Part shown: piece after piece, positions 1,075 to 54,285 of the stretch
Layout: each line of letters starts with the position of its first letter
Numbering within the stretch: position 1 is the stretch's first letter
From: Eledone cirrhosa
Taxonomy: Eukaryota
Length of the DNA stretch: 64,000 bases
Reading direction: 5' to 3'
Assembly (NCBI GenBank): GCA_964016885.1
Contig: OZ024751.1
Location: 20,026,001 to 20,090,000 of the forward strand
Notes under the pieces: model-generated
Database searches by the model: none
What the model was told of the DNA's origin: nothing
Seen by the model: only the letters and a program-made list of their open reading frames with translations
Made by a program: the position numbers and the translations under genes

Positions 1075-1250
1075 TATAGGTGATTCGGTGAATTACTGGT
1101 GGTTCTACCAATATCAGAACTCGATGCACAGGCAGAGTGTATATATTAAGAAAATACGATAAAGTTTCGTGTACGTGTTTTTATTGATTATCGACCTGTT
1201 ACCTATGTTCAGGCCGATAATCAATAAAAACATGTAAACGAATTTTATAG
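1075..1250 (-). mobile_element. Fold-back mini-element in (TA)n, probable PLE-like terminal fragment
   Basis: Imperfect inverted arms 1166-1198/1210-1242 plus a one-sided tail carrying GCATCGAGTTCT (minus) about 45 nt from the TA tract. No clean HHR core. Confidence 0.45.
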
Positions 1251-1464
1251 GTTTTTTTGGTTTTTTTGCCTTATACATTTCGTGTATATATATATATATA
1301 GAGAGAGAGAGAGAAAGAGGGGGTGGGGTGGGGGGAGAGAAGGAGAGATACACATACACATACACATGGCTGATTAAATGCTCATGTGCTTTCATCCTGT
1401 AAAATAACTTCTATTTCTCTTCTTACTTTCGTCTATGATTCTATTTCTTCTATCTCCTTTTCTT

Positions 1465-1500
1465 TGTTCCGATGAAGGACTAACGACCAAAACATAAAGA
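1465..1500 (+). ncRNA. Degenerate minimal hammerhead ribozyme (family A)
   Basis: CCGATGA-AGGACTAACGACC-AAAACATA-AAGA; homologous with its flanks to the better copies at 49258 and 62190. GAAA is mutated to AAAA. Confidence 0.45.
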
Positions 1501-1594
1501 TTATTTTCCTACAACACCAAGAATTAACTAATATATCTCGTCATTGTATTGTATTGTATTTTTCTTTGTTGTCTTTTCGCAAGTTTGCCTTTCA

Positions 1595-1840
1595 TCCTTC
1601 GGAAATCGATAAACTAAAGTACCAGCTAAATACTCAGATCGATATAATCGACTTTCCCTTTCCCTAAATTGATTGATTTGTGCCAATGCTGGACAGAAAG
1701 AATGGTTTTATCTACGATTAAGGACGGTAGGTTAGCAGCATCGGTTGCGCGTCGAACAAAAAGGCTTTGTCGTATTTACGGTTTTCTATCCCTTTCGAGG
1801 TTGACAAAACAAAGTACCAGTCTAATACTGGGGTCGATTC
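1595..1840 (+). mobile_element. Two decayed SINE family 1 fragments
   Basis: TTTGCCTTTCATCCTTCGG...AAAGTACCAG blocks matching the copy at 2908. Confidence 0.6.
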
Positions 1841-2907
1841 TTTCTCTATATCTCTTTTTCACTTCCTCTCACTCACTTTTTATCCTTCTATGGAAGAAAT
1901 CTGTAGTATTCAGACATGGAGAGGGATGAGCTCCTCCACTTTAAAAATGCTCTAGAAACGCCTTATGCCCCTACGACTTCATCAGGAGGTACGGGACCAT
2001 ACCATCCCATACCATACGTCCTGAGATCAAGTCCCACCGAGTTCAAGTCTGCCTTTCATACCTCCCTAGTCGACCTATCTATCTACCTACCTACCGCCCT
2101 ATCCATCCATCCATCCATTCATCCATCCATCCACCCATCTATTCATCCATCTATCTATTTACCTATATATCTGTCTTTCTGTCTATCTATCCATCTAAAT
2201 AAAGAAATATATCTATCCATCTATATTTGCTCTATCTATGGAAAAGCAAAACTGACGAAAATGATAACAGCCACCAAGATTGCAAGAACAGCAGTTAAAA
2301 ATAACAATGAAAATGAAAGCAAACAAGATGTTAAGCTCTTTAGTAAATGACATGCAGTGAATTAAAAATGGAGCTGAATTGAACTGAGCTGAGCTGAGCT
2401 GTGCAGAGATTTTATAACGTAGTTAAAGAGAAATGTATACTGCGTGATTTAAGGCGAGATAAGAAGGGAAGCTTTTAAACTAAACGCAACAGAAATCACG
2501 TCACAGAGTTGAGACAGTAGATTAAGATTGGATAAACACATACACTCACACACACGTACATACATACATACACATACACTCAATACACACGTACATACAT
2601 ACTCTTGCATGCACATAAACACACACATGTATATGTGTATATATATACACACACAATATAGGTGATTATACACACACACACATATATATATATATATACA
2701 CACATATGAGATTATATATATATATATATATATACACACACAATATGTGATTTTATATGTGTGTGTGTGTGTGTGTGTGTGTGTGTGTGTGTGTGTGTGT
2801 GTGTGTGTGTGTGTGTGTGTGTGTGTGTGTGTGTGTGTGTGTGTGTGTGATTTGATTGGTATCTGCTATACTGCGGCTACAACTTCGATTTATAACCATT
2901 ATATATA

Positions 2908-3090
2908 TGCGGTGGATTGGCAGTATCGGTAGAGGGTCGGACGCCATGCTTTCCAGCATAGTTACGTCCCTTGACGATCTGAGTTCAAATCCCGCCGAGG
3001 TTGACTTTGCCTTTCATCCTTACGGGGTCGATAAAATAAAGTACCAGTAATGCACTGGGTAATTGCTGGCCTTGTGCCTAAAGTAGAAAC
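2908..3090 (+). mobile_element. tRNA-derived SINE family 1, near full length
   Basis: A-box-like TGGCAGTATCGG, B-box GAGTTCAAATCCC, core GCCTTTCATCCTTACGGGGTCGATAAAATAAAGTACCAG, tail GCCTTGTGCCTAAAGTAGAAAC; more than 10 copies in the window. Confidence 0.85.
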
Positions 3091-3114
3091 AGTTATATAT
3101 ATATATACATATAT

Positions 3115-3392
3115 AGATTACAATAATCAAAGTTCAGTTTAAATCATTTATTTGCTTACAATTGTTTCCTCCAAACCGAGGTTTGGATTCTTCGGAGCAA
3201 CTATTTAGTGATCTATAACATACTTGACCTCCTTTTCAACACAAGAGACATATAAGCAAATAAATGATTTAAACTGAACTTTGATTATTGTAATCTCTAT
3301 ATAACTGCTCTGTAAAACAACCGATGTTATTACATTGAGCTATTTATCTTACTGGTAATAAGATAGTAATTAATGACTATCTTTCACTATTT
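3115..3392. mobile_element. Fold-back HHR mini-element (PLE-like)
   Basis: Perfect 44-bp inverted arms 3115-3158/3253-3296, internal HHR, tail with TACATTGAGCT, TA flank on the left. Confidence 0.7.
3152..3200 (-). ncRNA. Minimal type I hammerhead ribozyme (CCGAAGA core variant)
   Basis: Minus strand TTGCT-CCGAAGA-A-TCCAAAC-CTCG-GTTTGGA-G-GAAAC-AATT-GTA^AGCAA: 5-bp stem I, 7-bp stem II, palindromic stem III. Confidence 0.8.
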
Positions 3393-4356
3393 AGGGTTTG
3401 TATAAAAAATATATAACCATAAAAGGTTTTATTACATACATAACCATAAATAGTATCCTTAATACTATATATACATACATACATACATTCATAAACAGAA
3501 ACACGTACATACATACGCACATTTCTTACATGCCATACATACATAACACCACACGGACATGTTTGTGTGTGTATTTAGTTAGGTTTGCGGCCATTCTTTA
3601 GTGGAATATATTAATTTATTTTATCGATGTCGATTTATCGTATAGCTAAGTCAACGTAAGGAACGAAGATCGGTGCACTAAACGCTACAAGGTATTTGAT
3701 TTTTTTTATCACCTATTTTTAGGTTACCCTCTCATTCATATACATATATATATATATACGCATGTATGTATGGTATATATGTATGCTTGCATGTATAACC
3801 TAGAGGTTTTGCCCCCAAAATAGGATCAATATGATCGATTAAAATCCATGTCGGTAGCCCAGCACAGTCCTAGTTTAATGACTGAAACAAATAAAAGATA
3901 TATATACATATATATATATATATATATATATATATATATATATATAATATATATATATATATATATGTGTCTGTGTATATAAATGTATATATATAATTGT
4001 ATGTGGATATATGTGTGTGTGTATATAAATGTATATATATAATTGTATATAATTGTGTATGTTTATATATGTATACACATATATACATACATGCCTATAT
4101 ACATACATACATACATACCTATATACATACATACCTATGTACATACATAACTATATACATACATACATGCCTACATACATACATACATATATGCCTACAT
4201 ACACACATATATATATATATGTGTGTATATGTATATATATACACATATATATATATATATGTATATATATATATATATATATATATATATATATATATAT
4301 ATATATATATATATATATATATATATATATATATATATATATATATATATATATAT

Positions 4357-52297: not shown

Positions 52298-52488
52298 CAG
52301 GGCGGTGGATTGGCAGTATCGGTAGGGGGTCGGACGCCATGCTTTCTAGCATAGTTACGTCCCTTTACGATCTGAGTTCAAATCCCGCCGAGGTTGACTT
52401 TGCCTTTCATCCTTACGGGGTCGATAAAATAAATTACCAGTAATGCACTGGGCAATTGTTGGCCTTGTGCCTAAAGTAGAAACAATTA
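52298..52488 (+). mobile_element. SINE family 1
   Basis: Nearly identical to the 2908 copy; an extra tail copy lies at 52242-52283. Confidence 0.9.
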
Positions 52489-52569
52489 TATATCCGGGAG
52501 CTTCCAACAGACATGGTCGCATTCTTTTAAGGGTATGTCAATATTTGTTAATAAAACTGATCTATATTA

Positions 52570-52634
52570 TATTTTATCTGATGAAAGCGCACCATAATTT
52601 GCTTTGGTGTCCTTGAAATATGCATAATGAAATA
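52570..52634 (+). ncRNA. Hammerhead ribozyme, family C
   Basis: TATTTTAT-CTGATGA-AAGCGCACCA..TGGTGTCCTT-GAAATATGCATA^ATGAAATA. Confidence 0.75.
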
Positions 52635-53675
52635 AATATGCTTTTATAAATATAGTTTCCATTTATTAATATATTGTATATATACATATATATATATATA
52701 TATATATATGTGTGTATATATATATATATATATGTATATATATATATATATGTATATATATGTGTGTGTGTCTATATATACACACACACATATATACACA
52801 TTATACATACATACATACATACATACATACATACATATACACATATACACACACATACACATGTATATTCGACCGAGTACACACCACCTGGGCAATTGTG
52901 CTCTACTCTAAGCCCTGTGGAATTTCTCTGTCGAAGACAGATGTGAAGGAATCGGTACGGTGACCTCCCAAATACCTTGTGGTATTTTTATCCGCTTCAG
53001 TTCCTTCTACGTTAACTGTGTCTTTCTGTTGTGTTGATGGCGGTGATTCAAGAGGCACAAAATTGACTAGAAAATCTCTCTCAAGCAATTGACTGAAAGT
53101 AGCGTAATAAAATGAACATCCCCTTCTCTCTTTCTGTGTATATATATTTGTATATATGTGTGTGTGTATATATATATATGTGTGTGTGTGTGTGTGTATG
53201 TATATATATATGTGTGTGTGCATGTGTGTATCTGCATATATGTGTGTGTATATGTGTATATATATGTGTATATATATGTGTGTGTATATGTGTATATAAA
53301 TATATATATATATGTGTGTATGTGTGTGTATTTGCATATATATGTGTATATATATGTGTATATATATCTGTGTGTATATGTGTATATATATATGTGTGTG
53401 TGTGTGTATGTGCATATATATGTGTGTGTATATGTGTATATATATGTGTATATATATGTGTGTATATGTGTATATATATATGTGTGTGTGTGTGTGTGCA
53501 TATATGTGTGTGTGTGTGTGTACATATGTATATATATATATATGTGTGTATGTGTATATATATGTGTGTATATATGTGTATATATATGTGTATATATATG
53601 TGTGTGTGTGTACATGTGTATATATGTGTATGTGTACATATGTATATATATGTGTGTGTGTATGTGTTGCGTGTG

Positions 53676-53848
53676 TCGATTCCCGAGTTGTATCGTAAGG
53701 CCAACCACAGTTAGAAAAGGTACTCAATTCATTGGTATATTTTAGGCCTATTTTTATATAAAGAGAAATGACTTCTACAGGATTAGAACCGTTTCATTCG
53801 TATGAAATTATCATATGAATGAAACAGTTCTATTTCTGTAGAAGTCAT
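53676..53848. mobile_element. Diverged family P fold-back
   Basis: TTCTACAGGATTAGAACCGTTTCATTC / GAATGAAACAGTTCTATTTCTGTAGAA; tail with GGTACTCAAT. Confidence 0.7.
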
Positions 53849-53870
53849 ATATATATATATATATATATAT

Positions 53871-53990
53871 GCAAAAGTTCTATTTAAATTGTTGGGATAC
53901 AACAAGCAAATATTATTATAACTGATATAAAGCACTCGACAAATATTTGGAGTAGATATACAATATTAATAAATGGAAACTATATTTATA
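53871..53990 (-). mobile_element. Family C tail only
   Basis: Matches 17974-18093. Confidence 0.75.
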
Positions 53991-54043
53991 TATATATATA
54001 TATATATATATATATATATATATATATATATATATATATATAT

Positions 54044-54285
54044 AAAAGAGTCAGGACCCGACGGGGTGTTTTGATTGCATGCCCATATATAGACTGTAGC
54101 CCTTGATAAGTTCAGCAAGGTCCCTGCCGTCCTAATACTACTCTTTTAGTTCAGATATAGTTGTCGAAACGGCTGGAGCTCAGCCGTCGGGGTCCTGACT
54201 CTTTTCTTATTACCCACTCTACTACCCTTAGTATTGAGTACTCTGGTGCGTTATGGTCCAACTCGTATCTTACCACACCCTCTTA
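54044..54285 (+). mobile_element. Diverged family B element with short inverted 5' arm
   Basis: GCCC-TTGATAA..GTC-GAAACGGCTGGAGCTCAGCCGTC^GGGGTC; tail with GTATTGAGTAC. Confidence 0.7.

Follow-up and report, generated by a model that had tools for sequence, protein, structure and literature searches.

Many short repeats in a 64,000-nucleotide (nt) stretch of the Eledone cirrhosa genome (contig OZ024751.1, positions 20,026,001 to 20,090,000 of the forward strand; here referred to as the window) share a small sequence motif, which a preliminary description had noted as a hexamer, (A/G)T(T/C)GAG (RTYGAG), in the 3' tails of otherwise unrelated hammerhead ribozyme families. We find that the motif is the 3' strand of a bulged hairpin, composed of NCTC, a variable upper stem, a 2-nt bulge, GAGN, and then ACTNT, and that it marks the inner end of element copies just upstream of the hairpin, not the outer TA tract. 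The hairpin is a real structural module found across the Hydra clade of Penelope-like elements (PLEs); as to its function, we infer from sequence comparisons that it is probably an RNA signal that positions internal initiation by the reverse transcriptase (RT) of Hydra-clade PLEs and of their noncoding derivatives.

The window DNA is AT-rich (GC content, 0.31) and contains 235 TA tracts, between which sit short repeats with minimal type I hammerheads. Self-comparison and inspection of junctions revealed that many of these repeats combine an inverted and a direct arm with additional sequence at the 3' end, and that the families are inserted in (TA)n and show an inverted 5'-truncated arm together with a tail. 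This layout is the same as the arrangement described for PLEs, whose signature, in the available text of PMC8557442, is an inverted 5'-truncated copy with an optional tail. A type I minimal hammerhead lies upstream of the 3' end, with 17 structural matches in the window plus cores and 3' halves recognized by eye; our first descriptor missed Hydra-type motifs with extra core bases and was then relaxed. The structural descriptor found no hammerhead upstream in family D of the window, and Rfam returned no match in the window, hammerheads included.

All 11 strings quoted in the preliminary description are present within 1 nt of the coordinates given there, and 10 of them contain the hexamer; the exception, at 41964, is a variant hairpin that had been aligned out of register. 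By itself, RTYGAG is a weak signal, with 81 matches on both strands of 39.9 kb of non-microsatellite sequence compared to 57.2 ± 7.4 in 100 dinucleotide shuffles. It is enriched near ends, since 28 matches lie 30 to 85 nt from a segment end versus 10.7 ± 3.0 (maximum, 20) in shuffles, yet this count is inflated by same-family copies, which were counted separately. The families are also not all unrelated, as those at 3332 and 13670 are homologous (70% over 170 nt). The match at 27202, in family E, is probably coincidental and not part of this module; by eye each of the two arms carries it, 79 nt upstream of the inner end, and its pair probability is ~0.01. The motif is absent from the last 130 nt of all eight TA-flanked ends of a non-hammerhead family resembling short interspersed elements (SINEs), the one such family compared.

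The lower stem of the hairpin is 4 bp long (NCTC/GAGN), the window bulges are TT, TC, or TA, and the bases beside NCTC pair with those before the bulge. A bipartite descriptor of this architecture matches 20 sites in the window, compared to 4.2 ± 2.1 in shuffles, and 16 sites within 130 nt of an end, compared to 1.3 ± 1.0. Because the descriptor was drawn from this window, these counts are descriptive, and the independent test is a set of elements from metagenomes. Variants that lack TYGAG also occur in the window: GTTC/GAAC (43631-43666), ACTC/GGGT (20075-20099), and GCTC/GTGT with an AG bulge (41964). Among 36 hammerhead-anchored arms, identified as structural matches or by eye, 15 have a hairpin above the score threshold, 16 are short and run into microsatellite without a hairpin, and 5 are long with a hairpin that, by eye, is variant or decayed.

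The metagenome loci were chosen from contigs by RT motif alone, which gave at least 123 stretches and at least 122 loci; 79 loci with flanks were analyzed (84 matches in 73 clusters at 90%), and the short loci L080 to L122 were excluded from the hairpin tests. The RT-motif scan of viral contigs gave no matches. By their protein motifs, and using the definition of the clade in the available text of PMC8557442, these loci appear to be Hydra-clade PLEs. The 12 intact open reading frames (ORFs) examined all have RW(K/R) and DK(T/S) (an RWK-type motif, and DKT in place of DKG), YRDDG, and a degenerate GIY/YIG pair near residues 580 to 650, with CxxC only downstream and not between GIY and YIG; 11 of them have the CxC..C linker pattern (Hydra CxCx5C). 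Each is a single ORF of 704 to 751 codons in an element of <3 kb. Pfam gave a GIY-YIG match, below threshold, in only one of five Hydra-type ORFs. The predicted fold is that of an RT, with TERT entries at ranks 2, 3, 6, 7, 9, and 11 at low TM-scores (0.23 to 0.33), and the PDB held no sequence match for the metagenome Hydra-type protein. The element proteins are 41 to 52% identical to the first one aligned.

Applied to these elements, the window-derived descriptor matches 24 of 40 5' regions and 9 of 21 3' regions (0.58 and 0.21, respectively, in shuffles), as opposed to 0 of 40 reverse complements and 1 of 69 ORF interiors. Of 29 leaders in which the ORF start is intact and 150 nt of upstream sequence are present, 24 have at least one hairpin and 18 have at least two, paired 55 to 71 nt apart between the hammerhead and the start codon, and in most leaders hairpin 2 ends 15 to 36 nt before the AUG. 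The five leaders without a hairpin comprise, by eye, four with foreign or truncated upstream sequence and one with a long variant. Rfam gave no match in five Hydra loci. The preliminary description had proposed looking for the motif in the 3' ends of autonomous PLEs, and the module is indeed present in Hydra-clade elements. Three leaders (L073, L076, and L022) have a third hairpin-like copy, shorter than the others (ACTC or similar with TTGAGT), ~15 nt after the hammerhead cut.

To assess pairing, 47 hairpin instances were picked by the anchors CTC and T(T/C/A)GAG only, blind to pairing (one, at L009, was counted twice). The first upper pair is Watson-Crick in 45 of the 47 (C-G in 31, T-A in 12, G-C in 1, and A-T in 1), compared to 24.6 ± 2.7 in shuffles (0 of 5,000). 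What had been described as a leading A/G is thus not a free sequence preference; it is the 3' partner of this covarying pair. Upper pairs 2 and 3 are Watson-Crick in 31 and 27 instances, compared to 16.1 and 12.3 after shuffling; controls in which the strands were slid gave upper-pair counts at chance level. Downstream, A, C, T, and T (positions 1, 2, 3, and 5) are retained in 43 to 45 of the 47 instances. MAFFT aligned only the 3' strand of 45 hairpins, so a covariance model was seeded with 10 hairpins of equal length and an alignment, A3, was fitted to it; in this alignment, which includes a few doubtful rows, two-sided changes occur at four of six pairs (0 of 500 shuffles), and sliding destroys the pairing. 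A covariance model built from nonwindow loci only (R2) ranked 12 window matches at the top, all of them true hairpin sites (E, 0.005 to 1.7), and 13 true sites are among the 15 window matches of the seed model (R1). A pairing of GAG with a downstream CTC, seen at 41964 and 40944, was dropped because it has no covariation support, whereas the upstream pairing covaries.

Comparing 3' copies to the leader of the same family, we find that 8 of 10 autonomous junctions end 2 to 4 nt upstream of a hairpin, at hairpin 1 in L002 and L003 and at hairpin 2 in L005, both L010 elements, L030, L061, and L076; this set excludes rows ending within the ORF, across families, or solely on TA. Three of the autonomous ends lie at -4 without a TA tract. 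Given that 15.6% of TA/AT positions lie within 5 nt upstream of a hairpin (22 leaders), P is ~1e-5 for 8 of 10 and ~4e-5 for 8 of 11. Short arms in the window stop 0 to 8 nt upstream of the hairpin in families F, P, B, C, G, J, and T, a spread attributable to TA microhomology, the arm of family L ends at approximately -7, and that of family A is ambiguous. The terminal 95-nt repeat of unit T stops 4 to 7 nt before the start of hairpin 1 in the first copy. For family C, 5,077 and 6,049 reads from two read sets, both reduced-representation and sampling few loci, pass from the element into (TA)n at 18061, which is 4 nt upstream of the hairpin; of the hairpin variants listed for this family, the large ones fall at the second bulge base (approximately half of the reads) and in the loop, and none falls in the lower stem. 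Of 47 hairpins, 26 have TATA or ATAT within the 12 nt that precede them, compared to a background of 12%.

The fixed relation is therefore to the element end 0 to 8 nt upstream of the hairpin rather than to the outer TA tract, from which the preliminary description had measured 35 to 75 nt. That spacing holds at 8 of the 11 sites (37 to 72 nt to the first (TA)4) and fails at 20760 (78 nt), 13670 (92 nt), and 3332 (131 nt). The tail is best explained as the segment from hairpin 1 to hairpin 2, and the 35- to 75-nt spacing as the distance to a second, uncopied hairpin. A hairpin site can form a 5' junction too: copies at L007 (-), L020 (+), and window position 26611 (-) begin at a TA tract 3 to 12 nt before a hairpin, and the published Hydra-1_Ajap consensus likewise starts at a TA tract before its hairpin. 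At L010:2936-2953, one (TA)n tract is shared by two distinct Hydra-type elements in tail-to-tail arrangement, each of which stops 2 to 3 nt before its own second hairpin.

If the hairpin is a signal for internal initiation, the RT-endonuclease of the element would bind it as RNA (NCUC/GAGN, a 3' bulge starting with U, and unpaired ACUNU), the UA-rich bases immediately 5' of the hairpin would pair with the nicked (TA)n target, and synthesis of cDNA would start there, so that the directing hairpin would stay uncopied. A start at hairpin 2 would then give an arm with a tail containing hairpin 1, a start at hairpin 1 would give an arm without a tail, and a protein dimer that used both sites on two target strands would produce the palindromes of inverted arm plus tail. 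More tentatively, and at somewhat less than even odds in our judgment, the pair of bulged hairpins might serve as a ruler, with a dimer bound to both and priming cDNA just 5' of each on the nicked strands of (TA)n. A ruler of this kind, if true, would account for the tail, for the asymmetry of the inverted arms, and for why copies must lie in tandem, because the signal directing a round would be lost in that round, and would amount to a portable signal of ~30 nt that is not copied into the insertion. The preliminary suggestion that the families share a cis signal for RT/endonuclease binding or 3'-end formation gains support from the autonomous PLEs, although it lacked the 5' strand, the bulge, the second copy, and the true reference point.

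Several observations weigh against this interpretation. A Hydra RT-endonuclease gene was not found in the window (tblastn, best E of 0.78; Pfam), and neither the six-frame ORF list nor a Pfam scan of 40 of the 120 filtered frames revealed a PLE protein there; the link of the window families to Hydra proteins thus rests on the shared module, the hammerhead type, and the TA target. Within the window, unit T alone showed a hairpin 2, with a mismatch; none was seen for families B, C, and P, and among the listed loose ends of the family C reads none continues into a second hairpin, the outer end being at the edge of the stretch. Some junctions lie elsewhere, at -11 in L025, at -21 beside an indel in L012, and, by eye, at approximately -11 in L068; in the window, the arm at 54046 (approximately -12) and family E are outliers. 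The elements are related by descent, and neither the covariation nor the end counts are independent events. At E values of ≤10, both covariance models miss 6 of the 11 quoted sites (1127, 3332, 13670, 40944, 41964, and 27202), and for several window variants no folding in context is predicted. Finally, strand is not indicated by the counts of G-U versus A-C, which are about even, and a lower-stem probability of >0.5 is reached by 32 of 46 hairpins on the sense strand and by 29 of 46 on the opposite strand.

Such near-equal folding leaves room for a DNA-level signal, in which the hairpin would act in single-stranded DNA, either cDNA or an extruded donor strand, and the GIY-YIG endonuclease would cut a nearby TA and thereby set the ends. 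The copies that begin at a hairpin site (L007, L020, and window position 26611) would fit such a scheme, as would the requirement for the Drosophila virilis Penelope tail in endonuclease recognition of plasmid DNA that is reported in the available text of PMC11167929. However, the same text has the ends of the element PAc matching the sites where RT was mapped to start on an RNA template in vitro, and a plain double-stranded site is excluded by the spacer of 7 to 19 nt (73 nt in family G) together with the covarying upper stem; we consider a DNA signal unlikely.

The fixed place of the hairpins before the start codon and their UA-rich upstream flank would also suit elements that mainly control translation or transcription of the ORF, with ends falling nearby because UA-rich unpaired bases beside a hairpin prime easily. 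This appears quite unlikely, given that two hairpin copies each mark an end, that three of the ends, at -4, lack a TA tract, that so few TA/AT sites lie this close, and that the module, including compensatory variants of it, persists in the noncoding families of the window. Shared ancestry without any function, or chance occurrence of the hexamer beside TA tracts, could draw on how common RTYGAG is (82 matches in one count), on the coincidental look of 27202, and on the homology of two listed families, but this reading is very improbable and already largely refuted by the compensatory changes at four pairs, by the strand- and position-specific occurrence despite the divergence of the proteins, and by the absence of the motif from the ends of the SINE-like family. 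Signaling of internal RT initiation by the RNA hairpin remains the interpretation that we favor.

Hairpins and associated insertions in the window. Positions in parentheses are those of the preliminary description; R1 and R2 are the covariance models described in the text.
Feature	Coordinates	Strand	Evidence and remarks
Family P insertion in (TA)n	7765..7960	+	Inverted arm, direct arm with hammerhead (core 7833), tail; short arm stops 5-6 nt before hairpin
Family C insertion	17973..18427	-	365-nt inverted arms, hammerhead in each (cores 18161-, 18329+), 87-nt tail
Unit T, partial-tandem, noncoding	34730..35367	+	Two hairpins 94 nt apart, decayed hammerhead (by eye)
Family A hairpin, ACTC/GAGT, bulge TC (1127)	1119..1138	-	Descriptor; lower-stem pair probability 0.68-0.78; missed by covariance models at E ≤10
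Family F hairpin, GCTC/GAGC, bulge TT (3332)	3307..3340	+	Descriptor; inverted arm stops ~4 nt upstream, with hammerhead at 3195(-)
Family P hairpin (7909)	7899..7917	+	Descriptor; R1 E 7.3; pair probability 0.38
Family B hairpin in insertion 12864-13073	12913..12936	-	Descriptor; R2 E 0.048; short arm stops 5-8 nt upstream
Family B hairpin (13403)	13388..13411	+	Descriptor; R2 E 0.048
Family F relative hairpin (13670)	13662..13694	-	Descriptor; homologous to 3307-3340 region, 70% over 170 nt
Family C hairpin (18046)	18038..18056	-	Descriptor; R2 E 0.14; reads leave into (TA)n at 18061
Family B copy hairpin, ATTC/GAGT (G-U type change)	18764..18787	+	R2 E 9.2
Variant hairpin ACTC/GGGT, bulge TC	20075..20099	+	Behind C-like hammerhead at 19964; pair probability 0.92-0.99
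Hairpin-like module in family D, upper stem disturbed	20309..20339	+	R2 E 0.022; predicted pair probability 0 in context
Family D hairpin (20760)	20742..20767	+	Descriptor; R2 E 0.024; no hammerhead found upstream
Family P hairpin in insertion 21869-22063	21912..21930	-	Descriptor, R1, arm comparison
Family D copy hairpin	26574..26599	-	Descriptor, R2; copy starts 12 nt upstream
Family E site (27202), doubtful	27157..27209	+	Probably not this module
Hairpin 1 of unit T	34837..34869	+	Descriptor; pair probability 1.0
Hairpin 2 of unit T, outer pair mismatched	34931..34947	+	94 nt after hairpin 1; partial R2 match E 6.2; pair probability 0.04
Family B hairpin	37875..37898	-	Descriptor, R2
Family G hairpin, ~50 extra nt in upper stem-loop (40944)	40936..41016	-	Descriptor with span 90; pair probability 0.89-0.99; inverted arm stops 4-7 nt upstream
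Variant hairpin GCTC/GTGT, bulge AG (41964), type as Hydra-1_Crog	41950..41973	+	By eye; below descriptor threshold; not predicted to fold in context
Family J hairpin, bulge TA, absent from preliminary list	42706..42726	-	R2 E 0.01; sister arm stops 0-3 nt upstream
Family J hairpin, bulge CA, absent from preliminary list	43036..43056	+	Best window match, R2 E 0.005
Family L variant hairpin GTTC/GAAC, compensatory, without GAG	43631..43666	-	By eye; below descriptor threshold; sister arm stops ~7 nt upstream
Family C hairpin in insertion 48128-48532 (48170)	48162..48181	-	Descriptor; R2 E 1.7; short arm stops 2-7 nt upstream
Family C tail hairpin	53934..53953	-	Descriptor, R2
Family B relative hairpin	54216..54239	+	R2 E 0.006; own short arm stops ~12 nt upstream
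Family O possible variant hairpin, bulge GA, one upper pair	62086..62105	-	By eye; weak

Palindromic insertions in the window show further regularities. In the two family P palindromes (7765-7960 and 21869-22063), the common center lies 5 to 7 nt 5' of the hammerhead core and the central spacer is flipped relative to the tail, as would be expected if two separately primed cDNAs join head to head; the palindrome centers of families G, F, and J are likewise near the 5' edge of the hammerhead. Family G (40886-41447) contains a palindrome of 424 nt; stem II of its hammerhead is very long, and its hairpin carries the extra upper-stem sequence. Both related copies of the family F hammerhead, at 3195 (-) and ~13790 (-), have CCGA instead of CUGA. 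The hammerhead at 14466-14496 is 94% identical over 31 nt to one in the metagenome contig L002 (2646-2675 and 2927-2956), which also has a hairpin match nearby. Family E (26761-27275) has a 40-nt tail and a hammerhead whose 3' half differs, by eye, and it may represent a separate PLE clade.

Other palindromic TA-tract insertions have no clear hairpin (19480-19739, 4397-4486, and 9791-10101); in the first of these, a (TATC)n run comes immediately after an upper-stem-like pair. An abundant SINE-like family of ~185 nt (2908-3091, 13927-14110, 33933-34118, 52299-52486, and others) ends in TA tracts without the motif, and a tandem array of ~30-nt units occupies 32864-33748. Fragments at 40553-40820 and 43088-43237 resemble what we take to be the C-terminal end of an RTE-type long interspersed element (LINE), although Pfam gave no match.

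Small structured RNAs that bind RT and fix where copying starts or stops occur in several other retroelement systems, including the 3' stem-loops of LINEs and SINEs, hepadnavirus epsilon, the spacer of diversity-generating retroelements, and the template boundary of telomerase. Unlike these, the Hydra hairpin would lie 3' of the start, is duplicated, and would be left out of the copy that it directs. The question addressed is how the RT of PLEs, the closest relative of telomerase, recognizes its RNA and picks two internal starts. Our analysis names a structure of 16 to 30 nt that is conserved across divergent elements, predicts ends with an accuracy of a few bases, and lends itself to mutation, relocation, and rescue. 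If our interpretation is right, it would explain the signature of tail plus inverted arm, help to annotate noncoding derivatives, and define a minimal signal with which to study or use the target-primed insertion of PLEs.

The closest experimental parallel is PAc, a PLE of the Poseidon clade (Frangieh et al. 2024, PMC11167929). In the available text of that study, RT initiates at two internal sites flanking the tail and depends on RNA lying 3' of the start (the first 172 nt, with the main start at 111-118), both target strands are extended, and a dimer is predicted; the in vitro work thereby narrowed the RT requirement to a 172-nt region of one element. A tail between two internal starts, a need for RNA 3' of the start, extension of both target strands, and a dimer are features that our interpretation of the Hydra-type elements shares. 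PAc differs in that its starts lie inside an AC-rich stem-loop within the ORF, whereas Hydra-type starts would lie just 5' of a duplicated, covarying leader hairpin, and no signal common to different families is defined in the text available.

With the endonuclease-positive PLEs of the Hydra clade (Craig et al. 2021, PMC8557442), the window repeats share, as far as the available text goes, the (TA)n target, the inverted 5'-truncated arm, the optional tail, and a hammerhead with an extra base after CUGANGA and before GAAA; the window copies are noncoding, and the main text of that paper contains neither "stem-loop" nor "hairpin." By eye, four of the six published Hydra consensi (PMC8557442, File S7) nevertheless contain a clear or variant hairpin (Amil-2, Ajap-1 twice, Ajap-2, and Crog), Amil-1 has a weak one, and Obim-1 has a GGG variant; the consensus hairpins sit behind the hammerhead or before the ORF. 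Five hairpin 9-mers occur at seven places in the supplement text, four in Hydra noncoding ends and three inside coding-looking Naiad/Chlamys text, and no full 9-mer was located at the ends of Naiad or Chlamys elements in this text search, in which line breaks may mask matches.

The minimal hammerheads of PLEs and of the non-long-terminal-repeat retrozymes of animals (PMC4209133, PMC7229834, and bioRxiv 10.64898/2026.07.22.740005) are, in the portions available, likewise found in short nonautonomous units derived from PLE ends, some of them close together in opposite orientation like the arms in the window. These portions treat the ribozyme, and "hairpin" and "stem-loop" do not occur in those of PMC4209133 and bioRxiv 10.64898/2026.07.22.740005. 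The preliminary description did not recognize the motif as described, and we likewise found no description of the bulged hairpin in the open full-text literature on PLEs and retrozymes, as far as its text was available, subscription papers and Repbase being outside the search. Hammerheads, tails, inverted arms, TA targeting, and internal initiation were known already; what appears to be new is the bulged hairpin module.

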